Origin: Candidatus Woesearchaeota archaeon
GTDB taxonomy: Archaea; Nanobdellota; Nanobdellia; Woesearchaeales; UBA583
Length of the DNA stretch: 64,000 nt
NCBI GenBank assembly: GCA_965205335.1
Contig: OZ242164.1
Coordinates: 352,001 to 416,000, forward strand
Direction of reading: 5' to 3'
Positions 33,871 to 56,999 of the stretch are shown here, piece by piece. The position numbers were made by a program, and so were the translations under genes. Below the pieces are notes generated by a model. It did no database searches. It saw only the letters and a list, made by a program, of their open reading frames with translations, and had not been told where the DNA came from. Positions within the stretch are counted from its first letter, which is position 1, and every line of letters starts with the position of its first letter.

Positions 33871-34005
33871 TGCGGAATCGGGGATTTGAACCCCGGACCT
33901 CAGGCTTTCTTAGTAAGAAATACCAATAGAATCGCGATCAGAACCATCTAACTGTTTCGTTAAACTTATAAGACCTGCGCTCTAACCAGACTGAGCTAAA
34001 TCCGC
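33871..34005 (-). tRNA. tRNA-Ile(UAU) with a 60-nt intron at canonical position 37/38 (33907-33966)
   Basis: GCGGATTTAGCTCAGTCTGGTTAGAGCG CAGGT CT TAT A [intron] A GCCTG AGGTCCGGGGTTCAAATCCCCGATTCCGCA; bulge-helix-bulge with central CTTA/TAAG helix; 75-nt mature length. Confidence 0.85.
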
Positions 34006-42006: not shown

Positions 42007-45000
42007 ATGGAGCAAAAAAAATTGTCACAACATAAGGTATTAAGGGCAACTTGGATATTATTTCTATTTGTTGTTTTGGCTGGACTGGCAAGCAGTTTAG
42101 CATGGGGTCAACAAGCCCCTACTTTTAATCAGAGTGAGTACCATTTCACTCTCGATGAGAATGCAGACGGAAGTTTATTCCCTGTAAATGTCGGTCGTGT
42201 AAATGCTACTGACCCTGAAAATGGCTCAGTGACATATTCTATTGATCTCAGCTCTATTAATGAAGAAGTTCTATTTGAAATTAATCCATCAACCGGTATA
42301 ATTACATATATTGGTGAAGGGGAAGATTATGATGAAGGAACACAAGAATATACCTTAAATGTTGTGGCGAGAGATAATGAAAATAAGATTGCAACAGCAG
42401 AAGTAATAGTTAATATTAATAATATTGATGAAGTTCCTGTTTTCAACCAGAGTTCATATACATTTTCCCTTGACGAGAATGAGGAGAATGTCCCCCTTGG
42501 TAATGTGGACGCTGAAGACCCTGAGAATGAACATGTAGAATACTTAATTATTTCCCCTAACTCTCTATTTAGTATTGAAACTACAAATGGAGACATTAGA
42601 TATACTGGAAATGGGGAGAACTATGAAACAAAAAATCAATATATCTTAACAATTGTTGCATATGAACGAGATAACAACTTAAGCATTTCCACTGCAAACG
42701 TTATTATTAACATTACAGATGTAAATGAAGCCCCAGAATTCAACCAGAGTTCATACACATTTACCCTTGACGAAAATTTAGATGGTAGTTCAAACCCTGT
42801 AAATGTTGGAAAAGTAAAGGCAACCGACCCTGACGCCGATAGTACTCTAACATACTCCATCACAGTAGGCGACACGAATAAATTTAACATTAACTCATCT
42901 AATGGAGAAATTACATATATAGGAAGTGGGGAAGACCATGAAACAGATAACCTATACACTTTAACAGTTAAGGTAAGTGATGGAAAAAACGAAGTTGATA
43001 ACAGAGTTAACATTAACATTAATAACTTAAATGAGATTCCTGCTTTCAGTCAGAATGCCTACTCTTTCATCCTTAGGGAGAATTCTGAGGGTAGTACTAT
43101 ACCTGTTGATAAAGTAACTGCAACTGATCCGGATGACACAGATACAATAACATATTCCATCCTATTAGGTGATAAAAATAAATTTAATATTTCATCAGAA
43201 ACAGGAGATATTACATATATAGGAGAAGGGGAAGACTATGAAAGTGACATTAGAGGTTATTTTCTAATTATAAAAGCAACAGATAATAATAATGCTACAT
43301 CAAATGCAATAGTAAATATAAAGATTGAAGATGATACAAGTGATGATAGAATTTTAAAATTTGACAGAAGTAAATATGTATTTAACATTGATGAAAATTT
43401 AAACGGTAGTTCAACATCTGTGGATGTTGGAAGAGTAACAGCCGCAGGAGGCACAGGTTCTTTCACATACGCTATCCAAGAAGGTGACACAGACAAATTT
43501 GCTATTGACTCAGGAAATGGAAATATTACTTACATCGAAAGTGGAGAAGATTATGAAAGTGGAGATATCCAATATAACTTACTGATTAATGTAAGTGATG
43601 GAGAAAACAACGTTACTACAAATGTTGTAATTGACATAAACAATTTAGATGAGAATCCTCTGCTCTTCAATAAAGAAACATATAACTTCACTCTTAGCGA
43701 AAATGTTAATGGAAGTGGGACTCCTGTGGATGTTGGTAGTGTAACTGCTACTAATTACAATAACGATCAAGTAAAATATCTAAGTATTACTACCGACACT
43801 CCATTTGAAATTAATCCTTCAACAGGAGCTATTACATATACTGGAAGCGGGGAAGACTACGAAAGTGTAACAAAACACTATGACTTAATAATCGCTGCAT
43901 ACAGAGAAAATAACAGTTCAGATGTTGCCACTACAAATATTGTAATTAACATAACAGATTTAAATGAAACTCCTGCTTTCAATCAAAGTTCATACACATT
44001 TTCTCTTGACGAGAATGCAGACGGAAGTTCAACACCAGTAGATGTTGGAAGTGTATCTGCCACTGACCCTGAAACAGATACAGTAACTTACTACATCAAT
44101 GATGACACCCTATTTAACATTGATTCATCAACAGGAGTTATTACATATAATGGAAGCGGAGAAGACTACGAAAGTAGAACAAAACAATACAGTTTAGAAA
44201 TCACAGCAGGAGATGGATTAAGTAATACAACTGCTGATTTTACAATTAATATCAATAACATAGATGAAACTCCAGTTTTCAAAAAAGATTCATACACATT
44301 CAGCATTAATGAGAATGTGAACGCAAGTTCAAACCCTGTGAATATTGGAACAGTAGAAGCAACTGATGCTGATGAAAATGATAACATAACATACTCTATT
44401 TCCGTAGGGGACACCAATAAATTCAATATTAATTCATCAGCAGGTGTTATCACATATATTGGGGAAGGGGAAGACTACGAAACATTCCCTAAGAACTATT
44501 CCTTAATTGTTTCCGCAAGCGATGGAGTAAACAGAGCAGACATCATAGTAACAGTTACAATTGCGGACTTAAATGATGGAGGATTTAGATTTGAAAGCAG
44601 TAGTTACATATTTAGCCTTGATGAGAACTTAGATGGCAGTGAAGATCCAGAAAATGTCGGCAGAATAAGTACAGTTAATGGTGTTAGTTCTGTGACATAC
44701 TCTATTACAAGAGGTAATACTAATGATAAATTCAGCATTGGTTCAGATGGAATTATTAATTATACCGGAAGCGGAGAAGATTACGAAAGTAGAACAAAAA
44801 GATATACTCTAACAATTAGTGCAAATGACGGAGATAAGACCATTACTACAAATGTTGTTATTAATATTAACAATTTGAATGATGAGGGAGAATTTGGATT
44901 TGAGAGAGAGGTGTATGTATTCTTCCTTGAAGAGAACGCTAATGGAGTCAACATCGGAAACGTTAGTACTAATGATGTTGTCGTTAACGGATTTGATAGA

Positions 45001-48000
45001 TACGATATTGTGGGAGGTGACTCCAATAAATTTAGCATTGATTCATTAACTGGGGCTATTACATACAATGGAGGTGGGGAAGACTATGAAAGTGATACAA
45101 AACAATATAATCTGCAAGTTAATGCAAGTTATTTTAATGAAAGTAATGAGAGAAATCAAGTTACTACAACTGTTGTAGTTAATATTAAAGATTTGGATGA
45201 TAACTCCCTTGTTTTCAATCAGAGTTCATACACATTTACTTTTGACGAGAATTTAGATGGTAGTTCAGACCCTCAAGATGTTGGAAGTGTAACCGCTGAA
45301 ATCCCAATATCTGGAACAGCTAATGGTTACCTAATTCTATCTCACACTAACCTATTTAACGTTACATCAGGAGGTAATGTTGTATATATCGGAGAAGGAG
45401 AAAACTATGAAAGTGGAACAATCCAATATGACTTAACAATTGTAGCATACATAGATGAGGACAGATCAAATGCCGCTACTGCAAATGTTGTAGTTAATAT
45501 TAATAACGTAAATGAAACGCCTTTCTTCAACCAGAGTTCATACACATTTACTCTTGATGAGAATTTAAATGGTAGTTTAAACCCTATAAATGTTGGAGGA
45601 GTAAAAGCAGCTGATAATGATACGAATGATGTCATAACATACTCCTTCATATCAGGACATGGTGATTTATTTAACATTAACTCATCCAATGGAGAAATTA
45701 CATATATAGGAAGTGGGGAGGATTATGAAAGAAGAACAAACCCACAATACATTTTAACAGTTAGGGCAAGCGATGGCATAAATAATGCTGACACAGATGT
45801 TGATATTAACATTACCGATTTAAATGAAATCCCTGCTTTCGAACTGAAAGTCTATTCTTCCACCCTTGCTGAGAATAGGGATGGAAGTGAAACTCCTGTT
45901 GATATTAGAACAGTAACTGCAACTGATCCAGACGGCAGAGAAGATACAATAACATATTCTATCCTGTTAGGTGATACAAATAAATTCAACATTTCATCAG
46001 AAAACGGACAAATTACATACATAGGAGATGGGGAAGACTATGAAAGAGATATCAGAAATTACGTTTTAGTTATAAAAGCAACAGATAATAAAAGTTCAGT
46101 CAATGCCATAGTAAAAATTGAACTTACAGACATTCAAAATGACAATGAACCTCTGAGATTTGGGGAAACTGAATATGTATTTAACATTGATGAGAACGCC
46201 GATGAAAGTGAAACTCCTGTATCTGTTGGAACAGTAACTGCTATAGAAGGCGCAGGTTCTCCCACATACGCTATCCACGAGGGTGATACAGACAAATTTG
46301 ATATTGATTCAAGAAATGGACTTATTACTTATATCGGATATGGGGAAGATTATGAAAGTGGAACAATCCAGTATAACTTAAAGATTAACGCAAGTGATGG
46401 TGAAGACTATGTTATTGTAAACGTTGTAGTTGATATTAATGACTTAAACGACAATCCATTAACTTTCAGGCAGAGAATGTACAATTTCAACCTTAGCGAG
46501 AATGATGATGGTAGTTCAACTCCTGTTGATATTGGAAGTGTAACTGCTACTGATTACAATAATGATCAATTGATATACTTCATCATTTCCCCTAATACCA
46601 AATTCGTTGTTGATTCTGCAACAGGAGATATAACATACACAGGAAGAGGAGAGAATTATGAAAGTGAGATCAAACAACATAATTTAATAATTGTAGCATA
46701 CTTAGAAGATGATAACACAAGCATTACATCCACAAATGTTGAAGTTAACATTACTGACTTAAACGAAACTCCTGTCTTCAATCAGAGTTCATACACATTT
46801 ACTCTTGACGAGAATTTAGATGGTAGTTCAGACCCTCAAGATGTTGGAAGTGTATCTGCTACTGACCCTGAAACTGATACAATAACTTACTCTATTAATG
46901 AAGGGACTCCATTTGAAATTGACTCAGATGGAGCCATTACATATACTGGAAGCGGGGAAGATTACGAAAGTGAAACTAAACAACATGATTTAAAAATTAC
47001 AGCAAGTGATGGAGTAAGAGATGCTACTGTAGATGTTACTGTTAAAATTAATAATCAAGATGATAATGTCCTTGTTTTCAAAGAAAGTTCATACACATTC
47101 GGTGTTAATGAAAATCTAAATGGAAGTTCAAATCCTGTAAAAGTTGGAACAGTAGAAGCAGATGACGCCGACGGCGAAGATTACAATGTAACTTACTCAA
47201 TTTCAGTAGGAGATACCAATAAATTTAACATCAACTCATCAACAGGAGTTATTACATATATAGGAGAAGGTGAAGACTACGAAACACCTCCAAGCAATTA
47301 TACTTTGATTGTTATTGGAAGTGATACCCAGACTACAGACAATACTATAGTAACAATCGTAATTAGAGATGTGAAAGATCAAGGATTCAGATTTGAGGAA
47401 CTTGAGTATGCATTTAACATTGACGAGAATGTGGATGGAAGTACAACACCTGTAAATATCGGCAATGCAAAAGCTATAGAGGGAAGTGGTACCCCTACAT
47501 ACTCCATCTCAGAAGGAGACACTAATAAATTCAGAATAAATTCAAGAAACGGGAATATTACATACATCGGAAGTGGGGAAGATCACGAGAGTGAAACTAA
47601 ACAATATAACCTTACTATTATGGCAAAAGATGGAACGGATAATGCCACAGTAAAAGTAGTAGTTAATATTAATGATTTATATGATAACCCAATTGTTTTC
47701 AATCAGGACTTATACACATTCACTCTTGACGAGAATGAAGATGGTAGTTCAACTCGTGTAGATGTTGGAACTGTAACTGCTACCGATGGTGACAGTACTT
47801 CAAATCCTCTTGCATATACCATAGAAGAAGGAGATATAAGCAAGTTTTTCATCAACAGACAAAGTGGAGTTATCTCATATATTGGAAGTGGAGAAGATTA
47901 CGAAAGCGAAACAATACAATACAATCTAACTGTTAGGGCAAATGATGGAAAGAACACTACAACAGCAAAAGTAGTAATCAACATTAATAATTTAGATGAT

Positions 48001-51000
48001 AACTCTCTTGCCTTCAATCAGAGTTCATACACATTTTCTCTTGATGAGAATGAAGATGGAAGTTCAACAGCAGTTCCTGTTGACAGTGTAAATGCTGCTG
48101 ATATTGACGATTCTTCAAGTACTATTGCATATACAATAAAGGAAGGTGATACAAGCAAATTTGCTATCAACAGATTAAGTGGGGCTATCTCATACATTGG
48201 AAATGGGGAAGATTACGAAAGTGGAGTAACTTCATATGAATTAACCGTTAAAGCAAGTGATTGGTTAAATGAAGTTACTGCAAATGTTATTGTTAATATC
48301 AATAACTTAAATGAATCCCCTGCTTTCGAAAAGAATATCTATACTTTCACCCTTGATGAGAACCTAGATGGAAGTTCAACACCAATATCTATCGGAAATA
48401 TTAGTGCCACTGACCCAGAAGATGACTCACTGACATACCACCTTGTTAGTGAGCAGGTTCCATTTGTTGTTAATCCTCTAAATGGAAACATTCAATATAT
48501 CGGAAGCGGTGAGGATCATGAAACAAAAGACGAATATAACCTAACTGTTAGGGCAAGTGATGACATAAATAACGCCACTTCTAATGTTCTGGTTATTATC
48601 TTTGACTCAAATGAATTCTCTGTTGTTTTCGTACCTAATAGCAGTTATGTATTCACTCTTAACGAGAATGAGGATGGAAGTGTGACTCCTGTTTTCGTTG
48701 GAAATGTAACCGCTACTGATAAAGATAGTACAAGTGAGATACAATATTCAATCTTTATAGGAGATACAAATAAATTTAATATCAATTCGTCAACTGGTGA
48801 AATCACATATATTGGAGAGGGGGAAGATTACGAAAGTGGAACAATCCAGTATAGTCTAACAATTGAAGCAAGTGATAATGGAAACAGAGGTATTGCCGAA
48901 GTTACTATTAATATCATTGAAATAGATGGAGTCCTTGAGTTCTCAGATGATAGTTATACATTCACCCTTAATGAGAATGCAGATGGTAGTTCAAACCCAG
49001 TAGATGTTGGCACAGTAAGTGCAGGTGACTCCGACTCCACAGAAGATATTACTTATTCCATTACAAAAGGTGATACAGATAAATTTAACATTGATTCAGA
49101 AACAGGAGAGATTACATATGTTGGAGATGGAGAAGATTATGAGAGTGGAGTAACCCAGTATGAATTAACAGTTAAAGCAAGTGTTAGAACAACAGAAGTT
49201 ACTGCTGATGTTACTATTAATATTAACAACCTAAATGATGGAAGTGAGTTTGGATTTGAGAGAAGTTCATATGTATTCAGCCTTGATGAAAATGCAGATG
49301 GCAGTACAAACCCTGTAAACATTGGAACAGTAAATGCAATTAACAATAATGGTGATATAACATACTCAATCTCCTCAGGTGACACAAACAAATTTAACAT
49401 TAATTCATCAAGCGGAGCTATTACATACACAGGAAGCGGAGAAGACTATGAAAGTCAGACTAAACAATATACTCTAACAGTTACTGCATCAGATGATAAT
49501 GATGAAATAACTACTGATGTTACCATTAATATTAATAATTTAAATGATGTAATCAATGAGCCACCAGTAGCAAGAGATGATGAAATTGAAATAATCTCAG
49601 GGGATACTACAAGTGTTCTATCTAATGGAAAGACAAGTGTGAGAGACAACGATGAAGATGAGGACAACTTGAATTCCCAATTAACTGTAACTCTAATCAA
49701 CGATGCAAGTCATGGAAATCTAACACTTAATGAAAACGGAACCTTCACATATATGCACTATGGTAATAGTACAACCGATGATAGCTTTAGATATAGTATT
49801 AGCGATGGTATTAATGGTAGCAGTGCAACGGTTACAATTTCAGTGCAGGAGGACACATCACCTCCTACTGTCAATATAACAAGTCCTGCTAACGGATCAT
49901 CCACAACAGATACTACCCCAGAAATATCCTTTATAGCGATGGATAACACATCCCCAGAAGCCTTTAAGTCATTAAAATTCAAAGTATTTGTAGACAACAA
50001 TACACTAGTAAGGGAGGAAGTCGGAAACAGCAATACAACAATATCCTATAATCTCTCTGCGTTATCAATAGGTAGCCATACATTTTGGGTTGAAGCAACT
50101 GATCCTGCCGGAAATTCAAAGAACTCATCTAATGTAACAATTAACATTAACAGAGCCACAACCTCTTCATCCTCATCAGGAGGGGGAGGCGGTGGAAGTA
50201 GTAGTGGAACTCGTTTAGATGAAGGAGATCCAGAAGAATTTAGAATAAGAAGTGGAGGCTCAAGCGTTGATTTAATTGAAGTAGAAGCAAATGAGAGAGT
50301 AAACAACGTAAAAATAAAGGCAAAGAAACTTACAAGACTTCCGTCCTCAGTAGATGAAACCCCTAGCGGACAGATATATGAGTATATAGATATAACTGCA
50401 AGTAGATTAGATGATGATGAAATTGCTGATGCTACAATTGAATTTATTGTAGACAAAGATTGGTTATCAGACAATGAATTTGATAAAGAAGATGTGGTGC
50501 TATTAAGATATGATGAAGAAGATGATGAATGGGAAGAACTTGATACCGAGGTAATTGGGGAAAGTGCAATAGAAGTTAGATATTCTGCAGATACTTCAGG
50601 ATTTTCAACTTTTGCTATAGTAGCAATAAAGAAACCTAAGACTGAAACAACACAGATATCAGTTGTTACAACACAACAACCCACTCCAACTAAAACAGAA
50701 CCAGTTGAAAAAACTCCTGAACCAGTTGAAACAACACCAGAACCTACTCCAACCCCTACTAAAACAACACCTACAAGTACAGATACTTCATCTTTCAACA
50801 ACCTCCTTATAATCATACCTTTGATTGTAGTGACATTTGTAGTATTAATAATTGCAGTATCTATAATAATTAGAAAATCCCTGAGTAGACGTTCTGGAGT
50901 AAAAATAAGAAAAAAGATAAGACCTCCTGTTCAATCCCCTACTATCTCACTGGAAAGATCTAGATCGGTTCCAACTCCGATGTCAGTTCAACCTCCTAAG

Positions 51001-51594
51001 AGATATGTAGAACAAAGGATACCAAGACAAAGAAGAACCACACCAGTTCCAATAATTGTCCTAGTAGCAATAGGAATAATATTAGTTCTTGGAGTTGTAT
51101 ATCAAATCTTCTCCACAGAATCTACTGAGGCATCACCTTTAGAAGGCATAAGCATAGGTATAAATTCACTTGTCTTCTTCTCTTTGGTTGTAGTGTTGGT
51201 ATTAATATTTGTACTTGCCTTTAAGATTATTAAGGAGAACTCATATGAACATCCGAGAAGAAAAATCAAACAATATATGAAACCAAAGCCAAGGCCATCT
51301 CCTACACTCTCCTCTACACTTAGAGCAAGAAGTGGTGCTAAGCACTATTCATCAAAAACAATTCCAATAATATCATTAATGTTGGGTGTATTAATAATAC
51401 TGATACTTGCAATTGGAGTATATATTATTTCCACTGCAAGTTTTAATATGTTTTCCGCTGAAAATATGAACACTATACTGTTCATCTTCTTGATTATAGT
51501 GATGATTGTAATATTTGGAGTAGGATATAAATACAAAGTATTTAGTGAACTCCTATTTGGAAAGAGCAACACTCAAAGAAGCAAACTCTTGTAA
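42007..51594 (+). CDS. Cadherin-repeat surface adhesin (3195 aa) with Ig-like, PGF-pre-PGF, Pro/Thr stalk and 5 TM helices
   Basis: Signal peptide; more than 20 GEDYE-type cadherin units; TSGFSTFAI; C-terminus closely similar to that of 3289..18825. Confidence 0.87.
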   Translation: MEQKKLSQHKVLRATWILFLFVVLAGLASSLAWGQQAPTFNQSEYHFTLDENADGSLFPVNVGRVNATDPENGSVTYSIDLSSINEEVLFEINPSTGIITYIGEGEDYDEGTQEYTLNVVARDNENKIATAEVIVNINNIDEVPVFNQSSYTFSLDENEENVPLGNVDAEDPENEHVEYLIISPNSLFSIETTNGDIRYTGNGENYETKNQYILTIVAYERDNNLSISTANVIINITDVNEAPEFNQSSYTFTLDENLDGSSNPVNVGKVKATDPDADSTLTYSITVGDTNKFNINSSNGEITYIGSGEDHETDNLYTLTVKVSDGKNEVDNRVNININNLNEIPAFSQNAYSFILRENSEGSTIPVDKVTATDPDDTDTITYSILLGDKNKFNISSETGDITYIGEGEDYESDIRGYFLIIKATDNNNATSNAIVNIKIEDDTSDDRILKFDRSKYVFNIDENLNGSSTSVDVGRVTAAGGTGSFTYAIQEGDTDKFAIDSGNGNITYIESGEDYESGDIQYNLLINVSDGENNVTTNVVIDINNLDENPLLFNKETYNFTLSENVNGSGTPVDVGSVTATNYNNDQVKYLSITTDTPFEINPSTGAITYTGSGEDYESVTKHYDLIIAAYRENNSSDVATTNIVINITDLNETPAFNQSSYTFSLDENADGSSTPVDVGSVSATDPETDTVTYYINDDTLFNIDSSTGVITYNGSGEDYESRTKQYSLEITAGDGLSNTTADFTININNIDETPVFKKDSYTFSINENVNASSNPVNIGTVEATDADENDNITYSISVGDTNKFNINSSAGVITYIGEGEDYETFPKNYSLIVSASDGVNRADIIVTVTIADLNDGGFRFESSSYIFSLDENLDGSEDPENVGRISTVNGVSSVTYSITRGNTNDKFSIGSDGIINYTGSGEDYESRTKRYTLTISANDGDKTITTNVVININNLNDEGEFGFEREVYVFFLEENANGVNIGNVSTNDVVVNGFDRYDIVGGDSNKFSIDSLTGAITYNGGGEDYESDTKQYNLQVNASYFNESNERNQVTTTVVVNIKDLDDNSLVFNQSSYTFTFDENLDGSSDPQDVGSVTAEIPISGTANGYLILSHTNLFNVTSGGNVVYIGEGENYESGTIQYDLTIVAYIDEDRSNAATANVVVNINNVNETPFFNQSSYTFTLDENLNGSLNPINVGGVKAADNDTNDVITYSFISGHGDLFNINSSNGEITYIGSGEDYERRTNPQYILTVRASDGINNADTDVDINITDLNEIPAFELKVYSSTLAENRDGSETPVDIRTVTATDPDGREDTITYSILLGDTNKFNISSENGQITYIGDGEDYERDIRNYVLVIKATDNKSSVNAIVKIELTDIQNDNEPLRFGETEYVFNIDENADESETPVSVGTVTAIEGAGSPTYAIHEGDTDKFDIDSRNGLITYIGYGEDYESGTIQYNLKINASDGEDYVIVNVVVDINDLNDNPLTFRQRMYNFNLSENDDGSSTPVDIGSVTATDYNNDQLIYFIISPNTKFVVDSATGDITYTGRGENYESEIKQHNLIIVAYLEDDNTSITSTNVEVNITDLNETPVFNQSSYTFTLDENLDGSSDPQDVGSVSATDPETDTITYSINEGTPFEIDSDGAITYTGSGEDYESETKQHDLKITASDGVRDATVDVTVKINNQDDNVLVFKESSYTFGVNENLNGSSNPVKVGTVEADDADGEDYNVTYSISVGDTNKFNINSSTGVITYIGEGEDYETPPSNYTLIVIGSDTQTTDNTIVTIVIRDVKDQGFRFEELEYAFNIDENVDGSTTPVNIGNAKAIEGSGTPTYSISEGDTNKFRINSRNGNITYIGSGEDHESETKQYNLTIMAKDGTDNATVKVVVNINDLYDNPIVFNQDLYTFTLDENEDGSSTRVDVGTVTATDGDSTSNPLAYTIEEGDISKFFINRQSGVISYIGSGEDYESETIQYNLTVRANDGKNTTTAKVVININNLDDNSLAFNQSSYTFSLDENEDGSSTAVPVDSVNAADIDDSSSTIAYTIKEGDTSKFAINRLSGAISYIGNGEDYESGVTSYELTVKASDWLNEVTANVIVNINNLNESPAFEKNIYTFTLDENLDGSSTPISIGNISATDPEDDSLTYHLVSEQVPFVVNPLNGNIQYIGSGEDHETKDEYNLTVRASDDINNATSNVLVIIFDSNEFSVVFVPNSSYVFTLNENEDGSVTPVFVGNVTATDKDSTSEIQYSIFIGDTNKFNINSSTGEITYIGEGEDYESGTIQYSLTIEASDNGNRGIAEVTINIIEIDGVLEFSDDSYTFTLNENADGSSNPVDVGTVSAGDSDSTEDITYSITKGDTDKFNIDSETGEITYVGDGEDYESGVTQYELTVKASVRTTEVTADVTININNLNDGSEFGFERSSYVFSLDENADGSTNPVNIGTVNAINNNGDITYSISSGDTNKFNINSSSGAITYTGSGEDYESQTKQYTLTVTASDDNDEITTDVTININNLNDVINEPPVARDDEIEIISGDTTSVLSNGKTSVRDNDEDEDNLNSQLTVTLINDASHGNLTLNENGTFTYMHYGNSTTDDSFRYSISDGINGSSATVTISVQEDTSPPTVNITSPANGSSTTDTTPEISFIAMDNTSPEAFKSLKFKVFVDNNTLVREEVGNSNTTISYNLSALSIGSHTFWVEATDPAGNSKNSSNVTININRATTSSSSSGGGGGGSSSGTRLDEGDPEEFRIRSGGSSVDLIEVEANERVNNVKIKAKKLTRLPSSVDETPSGQIYEYIDITASRLDDDEIADATIEFIVDKDWLSDNEFDKEDVVLLRYDEEDDEWEELDTEVIGESAIEVRYSADTSGFSTFAIVAIKKPKTETTQISVVTTQQPTPTKTEPVEKTPEPVETTPEPTPTPTKTTPTSTDTSSFNNLLIIIPLIVVTFVVLIIAVSIIIRKSLSRRSGVKIRKKIRPPVQSPTISLERSRSVPTPMSVQPPKRYVEQRIPRQRRTTPVPIIVLVAIGIILVLGVVYQIFSTESTEASPLEGISIGINSLVFFSLVVVLVLIFVLAFKIIKENSYEHPRRKIKQYMKPKPRPSPTLSSTLRARSGAKHYSSKTIPIISLMLGVLIILILAIGVYIISTASFNMFSAENMNTILFIFLIIVMIVIFGVGYKYKVFSELLFGKSNTQRSKLL

Positions 51595-52200: not shown

Positions 52201-52440
52201 TTAATTAAGAATTAGTAAATCATTAGCATAATTATATTTTTCCTCTATGATTTCAATTTTCTTTACTAAAAACTCTTCTTCTCCAAATTTTTCATATCCT
52301 GAATTTACAGCGTCAAGTTCAGTATCATAACTTCCAATAATATCATTACCTTTAATTAAAACAAATTTTCCTTTATCACTTTTCAAAAGCTCTTCTTTAT
52401 TTTTTTCAAAAGTTTCTGTCTCTTTATCAAGATATTTCAT
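52201..52440 (-). CDS. Small DUF5678-like protein paired with the aspartyl protease
   Basis: ELLKSDKGKFVLIKGNDIIGSYDTELDAV..GYEKFG pattern; 1-nt spacing to the protease. Confidence 0.6.
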   Translation of the reverse strand: MKYLDKETETFEKNKEELLKSDKGKFVLIKGNDIIGSYDTELDAVNSGYEKFGEEEFLVKKIEIIEEKYNYANDLLILN

Positions 52441-52545
52441 AACATTATTAAAACTTACTCATTTATTGAGTTGTTAAGTTAGAGGGGTATAAATTAGTGA
52501 ACTTATAGAAAAATTTATAAAAAAAGTAAATGTCCATATATAATT

Positions 52546-53685
52546 ATGGAGACAGATTCTGAAAACAGAGTTTTAACATTATCAAATATGATAGTTAAAC
52601 AATTAGAAAGGGTAGTTGAGGGACAAGAATCCCCTAAGGAAGTTTATACTTATGCGGACTATATATGGTTGGATGGCTCCAACCCACAGCAACTGAGATC
52701 TAAAATTAGGATTTTAAATCGTCTGAACTCTCCTAAGTTGGAGGATTTTCCTGTTTGGAGTTTTGATGGTTCCAGTACGGGACAGGCTAAAGGGAGTGAC
52801 TCCGATTGTGAAATAAGACCAGTCTATGTGGTGAGAGATCCTTTAAGAGGGCAGGGGAACTATCTGGTGTTATGCGAAGTTTTTCATTTGGATGGAAGGC
52901 CTCATGAGACTAACACAAGACGAGAGCTCTATCGGATGATGAAAGAGCAGGGGGGCGATGATTTTGAAGTGTATATAGGCTTTGAACAAGAGTACACTCT
53001 TGTAAACCAGAAAGGCACTCCTTTAGGTTTTCCTGAATCAGGCTATCCATCTCCACAGGGTCCCTACTACTGTGGTGTGGGAGCTTCCAAGGCTTTTGGA
53101 AGACAGATCATAGAAGAACATTTGCGGCTTTGTGTGGAAGCGGGACTGAGTATATATGGAATTAATGGAGAGGTGATGCCAGGACAGTGGGAATTTCAGA
53201 TTGGGTATCGGGGAGATAAGGAGGGCGCTGATCCTTTGAGTGTTTCGGATCAACTTTGGGTAGCTCGTTATCTCTTAGAAAGATTAGCAGAAAACTACAA
53301 AGTAGACGTGAGTTATTCCAACAAGCCTGTTAAGGGGGACTGGAATGGAGCAGGCATGCACACCAATTTCTCCACTAAGTTCATGAGGGACTCGCAGGAA
53401 GGGTCGCAGGCCGTTCAGAAGGCCATTGAGACTTTGAAGGCTCGTCATGATATTCATATTCAAGATTACGGTCAGGGTTTAGGTGAGAGGCTAACAGGGG
53501 TTCATGAAACTTGTTCCATTGATACTTTCACGAGTGGGGTCTCTGATAGGGGAGCTTCTGTGCGTATTCCTCCCAAGACCTCTCAGAAGGGCTATGGCTA
53601 CATCGAAGATCGCCGACCGGGTGCTAATGCGGATCCCTACAAGATATCTATTTGTCTTGTGGGGAGTATTTGCGGTCTGGCTTAA
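52546..53685 (+). CDS. glnII: Glutamine synthetase, type II (GSII)
   Basis: YIWLDG, LRSK, FDGSST, GFEQEY, QGPYYCGVG, EVMPGQWEFQIG, DWNGAGMHTNFST, YIEDRRPGANADPY; 379-aa length fits GSII. Confidence 0.9.
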   Translation: METDSENRVLTLSNMIVKQLERVVEGQESPKEVYTYADYIWLDGSNPQQLRSKIRILNRLNSPKLEDFPVWSFDGSSTGQAKGSDSDCEIRPVYVVRDPLRGQGNYLVLCEVFHLDGRPHETNTRRELYRMMKEQGGDDFEVYIGFEQEYTLVNQKGTPLGFPESGYPSPQGPYYCGVGASKAFGRQIIEEHLRLCVEAGLSIYGINGEVMPGQWEFQIGYRGDKEGADPLSVSDQLWVARYLLERLAENYKVDVSYSNKPVKGDWNGAGMHTNFSTKFMRDSQEGSQAVQKAIETLKARHDIHIQDYGQGLGERLTGVHETCSIDTFTSGVSDRGASVRIPPKTSQKGYGYIEDRRPGANADPYKISICLVGSICGLA

Positions 53686-53724
53686 AGGAAAACTCTTCCC
53701 ACTGTTGGACACTCACAAATTTGT

Positions 53725-53816
53725 GTAGAAATTTATACATTCTATTAAACTATTGAGTGTTGCAGGTGGAGCTTGGTTAAATCTACAACAGTAGAAATTT
53801 ATATATTCTATTAAAC
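53725..53816 (-). CRISPR. Orphan type V-A (Cas12a)-like mini array: full repeat, 30-nt spacer, 3'-truncated repeat
   Basis: Minus-strand repeat GTTTAATAGAATATATAAATTTCTACTGTTGTAGAT (53816-53781) ends in the Cas12a handle AATTTCTACTGTTGTAGAT; spacer 53780-53751; second copy 53750-53725 matches 25/26 nt; 66-nt period. Confidence 0.85.
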
Positions 53817-54027
53817 AAAGGTTCTGTTAACTTTTAGAGTGATAGAGATAAAAGAAACGAGAGATATTCCAAAAATTTAGAGTTCTCAGTATGTTTTCAA
53901 AATGAACTGATTTTGAAACAACCATATTTATAACTGATGATTTACCTCGCATAAAACCCCTAACAGGAAAAACTTAATTTTATAAAAGCAAAGAATTTAG
54001 TTCTAATTGAGTTAATTATTCTTTAAA

Positions 54028-55437
54028 ATGGTTTTAGAAAAATTAGGAAGTTCTCTTAGAGGAGCACTTGACAAAGTTAGAAACTCTTTAACAGTTGATA
54101 GAGAATTAGTTGGAAATATTGTAAAAGAAATCCAGAAATCTCTCTTAGGAGCAGATGTTAATGTTAAACTTGTTTTGGATTTAACTAAGAAAATTCGTAG
54201 CAGGGCAATTTCTGAGGACAACAAAGCGCTTGATAAAAGAGAACACCTTATTACAATTATTTACGAAGAACTTTCCGCATTCTTAGGAGATGGTGAGGAA
54301 TTTGAATTACAACCAAAGCAGAATAGAATTCTATTAGTTGGTTTATACGGACAGGGTAAAACAACCACTTGCGCCAAATTAGGAGTTTACTTTAAAAAAC
54401 GTTCATCAAAAGTTGCCCTTATCTCAACAGACACTTGGAGACCCGCTGCGTATGAACAGTTAAAACAATTAGGTGAAAACGCTAATGTAGATGTCTATGG
54501 AGATCCAAGCATAAAAGATCCAATTAAAATATACAAGAAATTTGAAAAAGACTTTTCTAAATATGATATTGTCATAATTGATAGCGCGGGGCGTGATAGT
54601 TTAAACGAAGAATTAGTTGATGAAATTTCAGATTTAAACTCCTTTGTCAAACCAACTGATACTTTTATGGTTTTAGGAGCTGATGTTGGACAGACTGCTC
54701 AAAAGCAGACCCAAGCATTTAAAGAAAATCTTGATATTACTGGAGTTATAATCACGAAAATGGACGGAACTGGAAAAGGAGGGGGTGCTCTCTGTGCTTG
54801 TAGCGCCTGCTCTGCTCCTGTTAGATTCATTGGTGTTGGTGAGAAAATAACTGACTTAGAACGTTTCAACTCTTCAAGATTTGTATCACAACTCTTAGGA
54901 ATGGGAGATATTAAATCCCTCTTAGAAAAAGCAAAACTTGCAATTGATGAAGAATCAGCCAAGGATATGGGAGAGAAAATGATGTCTGGCGAGTTTGACT
55001 TAAATGATTTGTATGAGCAACTCAAAGCAATGAAAAAGATGGGTTCTATGAGTAAACTCTTAAACATGATTCCAGGCGTTAGCGGTTTGGGAATAGACAA
55101 ATCCTCTTTAAATGTTCAGGAGGAAAAATTACAGAAATGGAAATTCATAATGAACTCAATGACACCTCACGAAAAGAAAAATCCTTATGAAATTGACATA
55201 TCAAGAATTAAAAGAATTGCAAAAGGCAGTGGGAGTTCTATAACTAATGTTAGAGATTTATTAAAACATTTTAAGCAAACCAAAAAAATGATGGGAATGT
55301 TCAAAGACCCTAATGCAATAGGAAATATTGACGAAAAGACAATGGGAGACCCTAAAGAGATGATGAAAATGATGAAGAAATTTGGAGGGAACAAAGCAGT
55401 AAAGCAAATGGTGAAACAACAAAAGAAAATGCGATAA
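54028..55437 (+). CDS. srp54: Signal recognition particle protein SRP54
   Basis: ADVNVKLV, GLYGQGKTTT, DTWRPAAYEQL, DSAGR, TKMDGTGKGGG, Met-rich M domain. Confidence 0.96.
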   Translation: MVLEKLGSSLRGALDKVRNSLTVDRELVGNIVKEIQKSLLGADVNVKLVLDLTKKIRSRAISEDNKALDKREHLITIIYEELSAFLGDGEEFELQPKQNRILLVGLYGQGKTTTCAKLGVYFKKRSSKVALISTDTWRPAAYEQLKQLGENANVDVYGDPSIKDPIKIYKKFEKDFSKYDIVIIDSAGRDSLNEELVDEISDLNSFVKPTDTFMVLGADVGQTAQKQTQAFKENLDITGVIITKMDGTGKGGGALCACSACSAPVRFIGVGEKITDLERFNSSRFVSQLLGMGDIKSLLEKAKLAIDEESAKDMGEKMMSGEFDLNDLYEQLKAMKKMGSMSKLLNMIPGVSGLGIDKSSLNVQEEKLQKWKFIMNSMTPHEKKNPYEIDISRIKRIAKGSGSSITNVRDLLKHFKQTKKMMGMFKDPNAIGNIDEKTMGDPKEMMKMMKKFGGNKAVKQMVKQQKKMR

Positions 55438-55464
55438 CTCTAAATTCACATTTTAGATTTTAAT

Positions 55465-56184
55465 TCATTTCTTCCATACATCCTTTATATTCACAACAGG
55501 AAACCCAAACCTTAATATATCATCCTGACCTATTCTTGGACATGCCGTATTTACCCAGCATTCAATATAAGGAAAATTCTCCATTTCATAATCAATAAAA
55601 TTATCCCCTATAAAATAATAGAAATTCTTCTGGGGATACTGCTCTTTTAATTTCATTGAAGTATCCTTATACTCCTGCCCCCATTTCGTTGTAACAAAGA
55701 CCCCAATATTTTTTGACATATGAAACTTCATTAAATTCCCTTTCTTTTTTTTAAGATATTTTTCAATATGTTTCTTATCAATAACTTCAACAGTTCCGCT
55801 AACAACATTCATTAAAACAACAGGTTTTATTTCCTTCTCATATTCCTGAGCCAGAAGAAGAGCATTTGGGTGAAAATATCCATCACCAACATACACAAAC
55901 CCATCAATTTCATCTAAATTTAATTTCAGTGAATCCTTATATGAATCGCAACCAAGCATCTGCCCTTCAAGACTTGTTCTAAATGGCTTGGAAATTTGGG
56001 ACTTAAAACCCTCTTTCTTTAACAATTCTCTAACCTCATCCAAATTCTCCCTAAACTGAACCGCACTAAAAACTGCAAGATTTTTATTCTTCCCTTTATC
56101 AAAAGTACTATGCAAAACACCTATAAAATCCTTTGGAATATTAAACTCAATTCCATATTTAGCCTGCAAAAATTTTAGTTTCAT
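55465..56184 (-). CDS. dph2: Diphthamide biosynthesis Dph2, C-terminal two domains
   Basis: GQMLGCD, YVGDGYFH, WVNTACPRIGQDD. Confidence 0.85.
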   Translation of the reverse strand: MKLKFLQAKYGIEFNIPKDFIGVLHSTFDKGKNKNLAVFSAVQFRENLDEVRELLKKEGFKSQISKPFRTSLEGQMLGCDSYKDSLKLNLDEIDGFVYVGDGYFHPNALLLAQEYEKEIKPVVLMNVVSGTVEVIDKKHIEKYLKKKKGNLMKFHMSKNIGVFVTTKWGQEYKDTSMKLKEQYPQKNFYYFIGDNFIDYEMENFPYIECWVNTACPRIGQDDILRFGFPVVNIKDVWKK

Positions 56185-56188
56185 TTTT

Positions 56189-56718
56189 TATTTTTTAGTT
56201 TTCTTGGAATTCCTCCACTTCTTTATACTCTCATGTAATTCTTTGAACTTCTCCTCAGAATCTTCAATTTCTTGAAATCACTTTCTCCTTCTCTAAATAG
56301 ATAATATCCCAATTTTAATCATATTGTGAACCAACACCAATTGCACCAACAAATAAAAAAATATACTCAGAAAATTTACCAACTTTACCTATAATATCTG
56401 ACCACATTTGGTATTAGAACCTAATAGAAAAGCAATAAACAAAAAAGTAAAACTAAGGTAAAACCATTTCACAAGTTCAAAATACTTTCTGGGATTCTTA
56501 GTATAATAATTTTTGCTTAATGAAAGTGTTATTATCAAAACAGAAATATTTAATGTTAATATTCCAATAAAGAAAGTTGTATCGGTAAACCCTTTATATA
56601 AAAAAACTGAATATAGTGCATAAGATATACCATAAACAAGAAACATTGTCTTTGAAAGAACTAAAAAAAGCAATAGTAAAAAAAAAATTACAATATAAGT
56701 ATATACTTCTTCTACCAC
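56189..56718 (-). pseudogene. Membrane protein gene, probably disrupted (ORF 56389..56718 plus hydrophobic continuation after TAG and a frameshifted tail)
   Basis: After the TAG the frame continues VKLVNFLSIFFYLLVQLVLVHNMIKIGIIYLEKEK; another frame gives QEIEDSEEKFKELHESIKKWRNSKKTKK*. Confidence 0.5.
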
Positions 56719-56999
56719 ATTTCTTTCCTCTTAATATATACACTATGCCCCCACTGAACACATAAATCAAACCCTAAATCCTTTAAATGCAATGGAACAT
56801 CACATGCCCCAAAACAAGCCCCGAAATAAATAAAAAACTCTGCATCCGTCTTTTCCCTTAAAACATCCACAACCTCTTTTGAATAATACTTAAGCCCGTC
56901 AGGAAACTGAAGCAAAACCAATTTATTCCCATCCTTGTTAATACCATCAATTAACTTATCAAGTTCCAAATCATAAAACTCAGAATACTTCTCACTCAT
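56712..56999 (-). CDS. dph2: Diphthamide biosynthesis Dph2, N-terminal domain as a separate ORF
   Basis: YDLELDK, VLLQFPDGLK, GACFGACDV, VQWGHS. Confidence 0.85.
   Translation of the reverse strand: MSEKYSEFYDLELDKLIDGINKDGNKLVLLQFPDGLKYYSKEVVDVLREKTDAEFFIYFGACFGACDVPLHLKDLGFDLCVQWGHSVYIKRKEMW

Follow-up and report, generated by a model that had tools for sequence, protein, structure and literature searches.

A one-spacer type V-A mini-array between glnII and srp54

The DNA analysed here (the window) is a 64,000-nt stretch of the genome of a DPANN archaeon, which is assembled as a single contig of 1,199,749 bp with a GC content of 30.9%; the window corresponds to positions 352001-416000 of that contig. 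Between a glutamine synthetase gene (glnII) and the core gene srp54, the minus strand of the window carries a mini-array made up of one full repeat (R1), a single spacer and a cut repeat (R2), which together occupy 53725-53816. The features of this region are listed below in window coordinates.

52505-53722, plus strand: glnII cassette (type II glutamine synthetase) with its own TATA-like promoter; a duplicated segment
52546-53685, plus strand: glnII coding sequence, with Gln-synt_N and Gln-synt_C domains
53710-53724, no strand assigned: junction zone separating the cut repeat from the glnII cassette, containing the palindrome ACAAATTTGT
53725-53750, minus strand: R2, truncated distal repeat, first 26 nt, 25/26 identical to R1
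53751-53780, minus strand: spacer, 30 nt, 43% GC, TTAACCAAGCTCCACCTGCAACACTCAATA
53781-53816, minus strand: R1, full 36-nt type V-A repeat, GTTTAATAGAATATATAAATTTCTACTGTTGTAGAT
3' end of R1, minus strand: intact handle of the V-A type, AATTTCTACTGTTGTAGAT
53817-53967, minus strand: upstream flank of the mini-array, putative leader/promoter, with a TATA-like box GTTATAAATATGG ~105 nt upstream of R1
53893-53919, no strand assigned: perfect 9-bp hairpin with a 6-nt loop, between the TATA-like box and R1, TTTCAAAAT / ATTTTGAAA
53968-54027, plus strand: srp54 promoter region with a palindromic TATA box TTTTATAAAA, common to the related strain X4
54028-55437, plus strand: srp54, core gene, divergent from the mini-array, with SRP54, SRP_SPB and SRP54_N domains

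A sequence-only reading of the window had described a 36-nt repeat, a 30-nt spacer and a repeat minus its last 10 nt, and this anatomy was confirmed on the minus strand. The span given at the time (53715-53960) contains the mini-array but also takes in flanking DNA beyond 53725-53816. R1 has the form expected of a V-A repeat, ~36 nt with a 19-nt Cas12a handle (UCUAC-loop-GUAGA stem) at its 3' end. The last 10 nt of R2 are replaced by ACAAATTTGT, beyond which unrelated sequence continues, and R2 is left without the 3' half of the stem. The spacer is of typical length and is flanked by two repeats, the second of them incomplete. As the earlier reading held, there is one complete repeat-plus-spacer unit, consisting of R1 and the spacer.

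R1 is identical at 35/36 positions to all seven repeats of a longer array elsewhere in the genome (the main array, described below), the sole difference being a T instead of a C at position 16. This T16 is common to R1 and R2, and R2 has one further change (A13G). Repeat start-to-start distance is 66 nt in the mini-array, compared to 63-66 nt in the main array. When all 36-nt windows on both strands of the genome were scored against R1, nine reached at least 28/36, comprising the eight true repeats and one decayed solo repeat; R2 scored 27. Because R1 matches the seven main repeats at 35/36 positions and the genome-wide scan isolates the true repeats, the mini-array is not a chance resemblance. 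Its repeat sequence identifies it as a genuine V-A repeat-spacer unit of the resident system, and the earlier assignment of the handle to type V-A holds, given the AATTTCTACTGTTGTAGAT at the end of R1 and its 35/36 identity to repeats beside cas12a. No further decayed repeats were found near the mini-array (52300-54100, both strands, at most 20/36 apart from R1 and R2).

When a 141-nt transcript was folded computationally, the minimum-energy structure (z -2.3) did not contain the canonical hairpin; instead, the glnII 3' flank was base-paired with the 5' half of the handle. The piece of the glnII 3' flank that resembles an inverted repeat, and which accounts for a 12-bp pairing in this fold, was dropped as a repeat candidate as it matches the repeat at only ~18/36 positions by hand.

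The host genome contains a complete type V-A locus

We searched the whole genome for cas12a and for the same repeat, as the sequence-only reading had proposed, and found both at 706.7-718.5 kb, in a complete V-A locus on the same contig as the mini-array. Beside the main array, the minus strand carries cas2, cas1, cas4, a gene for an AAA_14/DUF4143 ATPase, a gene for a 1185-aa protein, and cas12a. Positions of the main features are given below, with L032 denoting the extracted locus, G000 the host genome and C1 its contig.

706717-707138 (L032:7717-8138), plus strand: main array with 7 repeats and spacers of 27-30 nt, located by handle and repeat search
L032:9935-11134, minus strand: AAA_14/DUF4143 ATPase, 399 aa, between the Cas12a3-like gene and cas4; match to the PADLOC candidate system PDC-S01 (E 2e-77)
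L032:11235-14792 (G000:C1:710235-713792), minus strand: Cas12a3-like protein, 1185 aa, between cas12a and the ATPase/cas4 side; matched by PADLOC profiles
L032:14809-19479, minus strand: Cas12a, 1556 aa, intact frame; TIGR04330, 739 bits

Cas1, Cas2 and Cas4 are supported by Pfam matches, and cas1 is present in a single copy in the genome. Cas12a has REC1, REC2, PI, RuvC_1 and NUC domains. Alignment to FnCas12a structures showed that the positions fHcpit...nfK...K, IDRGER, LEDLNFGFK, mR and DSDANGAY are kept. The conserved positions relative to FnCas12a (H/K/K, D, E, R and D) are those which we take to be the crRNA-processing (RNase) and RuvC/Nuc residues. Cas12a is unusually long in this species (1556 aa) and in G007 (1537 aa), compared to ~1290 aa in G001 and G019, all three being related genomes. 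The main array reads towards cas2 and is convergent with the cas operon, its last repeat ending 19 nt from the cas2 stop codon. In G019 the array is located after cas12a and has the same orientation.

The distance from the mini-array to the main array is 300,901 nt, and to cas12a about 308 kb. Genome hits for cas12a, cas1 and the Cas12a3-like family were confined to 707-718 kb, and the window covers 352-416 kb; the earlier statement that the 64 kb contain no cas gene is thus correct for these three. The term "orphan", which the same reading had applied to the mini-array, is true only inside the window and wrong at the level of the genome, where a complete V-A locus lies ~301 kb away. An orphan array has no cognate cas genes in its genome, whereas here both cas12a and the adaptation genes are present. 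Because a complete cognate V-A system is encoded on the same contig, the mini-array is, in present terminology (PMC13142298), an "isolated" array and not an "orphan" array. The case shows that an array found in 64 kb of sequence should be checked against the whole genome before it is called "orphan". The sequence-only reading had also suggested that a distant Cas12a could work in trans on the mini-array; a candidate for this role is present in the same genome, ~308 kb away, and its predicted catalytic-site residues are conserved.

A Cas12a3-like protein is encoded next to cas12a

The 1185-aa protein had no Pfam matches. The PADLOC Cas12a profiles align over its full length (E 2e-174), and Cas12a3 proteins are the only relatives with solved structures (21we, E 3e-69; 9hlx, E 9e-49). 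The alignments show GIDRG, LEDLN and C-terminal D motifs and a CxxC...C stretch resembling a zinc ribbon. Matches to Cas12a2/a3-family profiles were found in three of the 41 genomes (G000, G019 and G014), all in the genus of the host. The G019 family member sits between its cas12a and its array, and in G000 too this effector is near cas12a. On the basis of these profile and structure matches, this DPANN archaeon encodes a Cas12a3-like effector in tandem with Cas12a.

Cas12a3 has been described as an RNA-triggered nuclease that cuts tRNA tails (PMC12851939). The main text of that paper mentions neither an archaeal host nor a tandem locus, its loci and hosts being listed in supplementary tables. 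Tandem cas12a/cas12a2 genes with one common array have been described (PMC9811890). Any guide made from the mini-array could serve both the Cas12a and the Cas12a3-like effector, and would in that case feed a dual DNA- and RNA-sensing system. The dual Cas12a/Cas12a3-like loci of this DPANN genus are a more interesting wider context than the mini-array itself.

The cut repeat borders an acquired and duplicated glnII cassette

The glnII cassette has a second copy at genome positions 1068947-1070166 (L033:2947-4166), with 98.4% identity over 1220 nt. Its GC content is 0.42-0.49, compared to 0.31 for the genome. Among the 41 genomes, glnII was found only in the host genome, in two copies, and in 0/40 relatives. 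A search of IMG/VR returned glnII relatives in 130 candidate stretches, of which 128 were confirmed, with 48-57% identity among the 80 kept; some of these are on contigs of 200-300 kb. We take the cassette to have been horizontally acquired and duplicated.

The near-identity of the two glnII copies stops at ...CACTGTTGG (53709), followed by a weaker likeness (~13/19) up to 53722. The cassette breakpoint is thus 2-15 nt from R2 and is not exact, as the last ~15 nt are only partly alike. The missing 10 nt of R2 are absent from the other side of the cassette, which excludes a simple insertion into the repeat and means that a deletion or another rearrangement is needed. No repeat was found beside the second glnII copy. 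The array of G007 ends in a terminal repeat with only its 5' part (GTTTAATAAAAAAAAC...). Since 5'-only terminal repeats of this type occur naturally in the genus, R2 may itself be an ordinary terminal repeat, with the cassette having landed next to it, and truncation of R2 by the cassette is only one of the possibilities. The earlier suggestion that the mini-array is a remnant fits a cut repeat at the edge of an acquired cassette.

The upstream flank is AT-rich and does not resemble the leaders of the genus

The flank on the leader side of R1 has a GC content of 0.26 (over 53800-53999). The leader motifs TTGCAAACC..TCTTTATTTT are common to the main array of the host genome and the arrays of G007 and G019, with AAAATGAGTTTTAGAG occurring in G007 and G019. 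None of these V-A leader motifs of the genus occurs within 300 nt upstream of R1, and pairwise identity between the flank and the real leaders is 43-48%, which is the level seen among unrelated AT-rich flanks. The sequence-only reading had called this flank AT-rich and leader-like; the first description stands, and the second does not if it is taken to mean homology to the leaders of cas-adjacent arrays, which we did not find. Spacer uptake needs a leader; in the absence of a recognisable one, it has probably ended here, and we regard the mini-array as probably closed to new spacers.

The junction upstream of srp54 is variable

Among 40 relatives, V-A handles were found in arrays in G007 (45 repeats), G019 (33 repeats) and G014 (at a contig end), and in a solo repeat in G013. 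Handle matches in G008, G016 and G017 look like chance, being in or by coding sequence. cas12a is present in 4/20 genomes of the genus. No array or repeat was found next to srp54 in any of the relatives searched. Repeat relics outside arrays are common in the lineage, as seen from the solo full repeat of G013 and the decayed solo repeat of the host genome. We list these, together with two handle-like sites, below.

L028:1484-1519, plus strand: solo full V-A repeat in G013, GTTTAATGAAATATTAAAACTTCTACTATTGTAGAT
G000:C1:581314-581349, plus strand: decayed solo V-A repeat, downstream of a gene and with no second repeat, 28/36 to R1, ATTTAAAAGAACACATAAATATCTAATATTATAGAT
L034:4992-5010 and L034:16402-16420, minus strand: two handle-like sites in the promoters of paralogous small membrane-protein genes, AATTTCTACTGTTGCAGAT, 18/19

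No match to cas12a was found in G013, whose assembly is 93% complete. The solo repeat at 581314 is the only non-array site of the host genome above 27/36. The two handle-like sites have one broken stem pair, no resemblance to the repeat on the 5' side and no seed matches; they may be chance or old debris.

The genomic context of srp54 is poorly conserved. dph2 is kept downstream of srp54 in 4/19 loci, and the neighbours upstream of srp54 in the host genome recur in 0/19 and 0/11 loci. SRP54 is 64-73% identical in relatives of the same genus, the nearest genomes reaching only about 70%. The ancestral state of the srp54 junction was not recovered from these relatives, which are too distant for reconstruction of the rearrangement that split the arrays.

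A closer comparison came from a contig of another study's run (X4), representing a strain ~94% identical over srp54. It matches down to 53967, 60 nt upstream of srp54, and continues with unlike sequence. Because X4 diverges at this point, the related strain does not have the 150-nt flank, the mini-array and glnII in common with the host genome. In two runs of one sample, short-read contigs span the mini-array without an indel (X1 over 52400-55453 and X2 over 53679-55453), although this sample may be the source of the genome itself and hence is not independent support. The sequence-only reading had raised the possibility of a collapsed longer array; these contigs bridge the unit without gaps and reveal no collapse in those assemblies.

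No target was found for the spacer

The lack of a detected target is weak evidence, as DPANN viruses are poorly sampled. In the host genome, the best match to the spacer other than itself has 9 mismatches, as do shuffled spacers (best matches of 8-10 mismatches for 20 shuffles). The exact 30-mer had no matches in viral, metagenome and genome contig collections, and the PAM-proximal 20-mer had no viral matches. Two metagenome matches to the 20-mer (L125 and L126) were rejected as chance, as they agree at 21/30 positions and have ATAG at the PAM position. Allowing up to 3 mismatches, only the spacer of the host genome itself was recovered among 401 genomes of the order (0/400 others). BLAST searches of phage and plasmid sequences with the mini-array and the main array returned only chance-level AT-rich matches (E 0.02 to 0.9). 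The searches against self, viral and metagenome sequences that had been suggested along with a TTTV check therefore yielded no target, the two metagenome matches being without TTTV.

Regulation through a partial self-match, another earlier suggestion, is not borne out. No TTTV-flanked seed match of at least 9 nt to the PAM-proximal end of the spacer exists genome-wide. There are three TTTV-flanked seeds of 8 nt, compared to ~2.6 expected by our own arithmetic, and none of them is in the 78-nt region upstream of cas12a. Likewise, no CreR-like seeds beyond chance were found for the two handle-like sites, the 581-kb solo repeat or a 177-kb site.

Origin and possible function of the mini-array

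We favour, with a probability of roughly 0.6, the reading that the mini-array is an isolated, static one-spacer fragment of the resident V-A system at a rearranged, strain-specific junction. A rearrangement would have left the end of an array here, whether through an insertion or deletion at the edge of the cassette or because an old terminal repeat came to lie beside it. Both mini-array repeats have T16 and all seven main repeats have C16, which means that the fragment was not freshly copied from the main array as it is now. A point against a static relic is the intact state of the handle and spacer amid decayed relics elsewhere in the genome, which could mean selection for function.

A fragment of this kind might still yield a guide. 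Given transcription of the minus strand, the R1 hairpin would be bound by Cas12a, which would cleave immediately 5' of the handle. Cas12a guides consisting of a handle plus a spacer are made with 3' trimming, and a second repeat is unnecessary. The 3' end of the guide would be trimmed in the same manner here and the truncated R2 would not be needed, giving a predicted mature guide of 40-44 nt that starts with AAUUUCUACUGUUGUAGAU and continues with the spacer. Co-transcriptional binding of Cas12a would avoid the misfolding of the handle with the glnII 3' flank that the modelled fold predicts. Loaded with such a guide, Cas12a would cleave matching DNA flanked by TTTV, and the Cas12a3-like enzyme might become active against transcripts complementary to it. 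A guide from a lone unit is possible because single repeat-guide units are processed by Cas12a (bioRxiv 10.1101/2024.10.29.618823).

The intact state of R1 and the spacer, set against the decay of the other repeat relics, is also an argument for a functional stand-alone guide gene, transcribed divergently from srp54, used in trans and kept against a prevalent unsequenced virus or plasmid. The cognate effectors are intact, there are TATA-like boxes upstream, tandem Cas12a/Cas12a2 loci with one array have been reported (PMC9811890), and isolated arrays can work according to PMC13142298. However, the spacer has no protospacer in the host genome, the genomes of the order, or the viral, metagenome, phage and plasmid collections, the unit is absent from the other genomes searched and was not seen in the ~94% strain, and the flank lacks homology to leaders. 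We consider a stand-alone guide gene possible but doubtful. Slightly more doubtful is its most specific form, a maintained single-guide gene with its own promoter, divergent from srp54, that supplies one fixed guide to both Cas12a and an RNA-triggered Cas12a3-like effector. If true, a DPANN archaeon with a genome of 1.2 Mb would have an immune memory that is hard-wired. The position of the unit at a strain-variable junction beside a foreign, duplicated, GC-rich cassette would also be expected if a virus- or plasmid-borne mini-array had integrated upstream of srp54, perhaps together with the glnII cassette; glnII relatives are common in IMG/VR viral contigs and virus-borne mini-arrays exist (PMC6858448). 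Yet the second glnII copy has no neighbouring repeat, a scan of 9 flanking ORFs revealed no viral hallmark or integrase gene, no phage or plasmid record has a similar stretch, and the mini-array DNA is AT-rich like the host and unlike the cassette. The repeat is closest to the array of the host itself (35/36), which is compatible with either origin. Delivery by a mobile element is unlikely on this evidence.

We consider it similarly improbable that Cas1-Cas2(-Cas4) integrated one spacer off target at a solo repeat, duplicating that repeat, and that the distal copy was cut later. Solo V-A repeats do occur in the lineage (in G013 and at 581314 in the host genome), off-target acquisition is one of three origins proposed for isolated arrays (PMC13142298), and T16 is present in both repeats, as if one had been copied from the other. 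But no leader-like integration signal was found, and T16 would be equally expected for neighbouring repeats of any older array, so that it does not distinguish this origin from a relic. A regulatory crRNA-like RNA of the CreR/Cracr kind, guiding Cas12a binding at a promoter, or a decoy titrating the effector, has precedents in the V-A CreR/Cracr elements, which consist of one repeat and a short guide (bioRxiv 10.1101/2024.10.29.618823), and in the frequency of repeat-like elements in V-A loci (bioRxiv 10.1101/2023.03.03.530964). This is very unlikely here, given the lack of a TTTV-flanked seed of at least 9 nt, a chance number of 8-nt seeds (3 vs ~2.6 expected) with none in the cas12a promoter, a best full-length self-match with as many mismatches (9) as shuffles give, a distance of 308 kb from cas12a and a repeat that is not degenerate. 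Finally, repeats collapse readily, and the genome is a single contig, which would leave room for an assembly artefact or a collapsed longer array. We give this hardly any credence, as contigs from two runs cross the unit without gaps, both flanks are unique, and R1 differs from the main repeats at position 16, which excludes a misplaced main-array read.

Comparison with known isolated arrays and solo repeats

The mini-array is an ordinary example of an already known feature class, isolated arrays. The proposed origins of such arrays are transfer by mobile elements, loss or rearrangement, and off-target acquisition (PMC13142298, citing Shmakov et al. 2020). Like the isolated arrays described there, the mini-array is a genuine repeat-spacer unit, located far away from the cas operon of a genome that has the cognate system, and the same candidate origins apply. 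Unlike typical members of the class, it has one spacer, a truncated distal repeat and no homologous leader, and it is of type V-A and in a DPANN host.

In Francisella, a V-A remnant consisting of a solo repeat and the last, degenerate repeat after loss of the locus has been described (bioRxiv 10.1101/2023.03.03.530964). Both cases represent V-A repeat debris from rearrangement in which a degenerate terminal repeat was kept. In Francisella the cas locus is gone and the remnant marks its site, whereas here the cas locus is intact elsewhere, and there is no sign that cas genes ever sat at srp54. The present junction offers a clear example of an array end falling together with the edge of a cassette that was recently acquired and duplicated, and is of use in considering how arrays become fragmented.

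CreR/Cracr elements have a degenerate repeat and a guide of ~21 nt, of which ~10 nt match the cas12a promoter by a TTTA PAM, and are positioned beside cas12a or on phages (bioRxiv 10.1101/2024.10.29.618823). They are similar to the mini-array in that one Cas12a repeat and a guide suffice for a processed small RNA, without a second repeat. By contrast, the mini-array has a canonical repeat, a spacer of full length and no seed match, and lies 308 kb from cas12a; the two marks of this class, a promoter seed with TTTV and a position next to cas12a, on a phage or on a plasmid, were not found. The virus-borne mini-arrays described in PMC6858448 likewise have one or two spacers and host-type repeats without cas genes. 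Those are in viral genomes and target related viruses, unlike the mini-array described here, which is flanked by cellular genes (srp54 and dph2) and a metabolic cassette and for which no target was found.

Other features of the window

The diphthamide synthase gene dph2, downstream of srp54, is split, with the C-terminal part at 55465-56184 and the N-terminal part at 56712-56999 (minus strand), separated by ~530 nt that contain a 109-aa ORF. A similar gap is present in L046, and the two parts are adjacent in L049 and L050. On the other side of glnII, 42007-51594 (plus strand) encodes a protein of 3195 aa with at least 16 cadherin repeats, which has many internal paralogous stretches and others elsewhere in the genome (388-402 kb, 282-286 kb and 368 kb). 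At 33871-34005 (minus strand), a tRNA match extends over 135 nt compared to the 71 positions of the model, and adjoins a normal tRNA of 72 nt. This suggests that the tRNA at 33871-34005 is intron-bearing.
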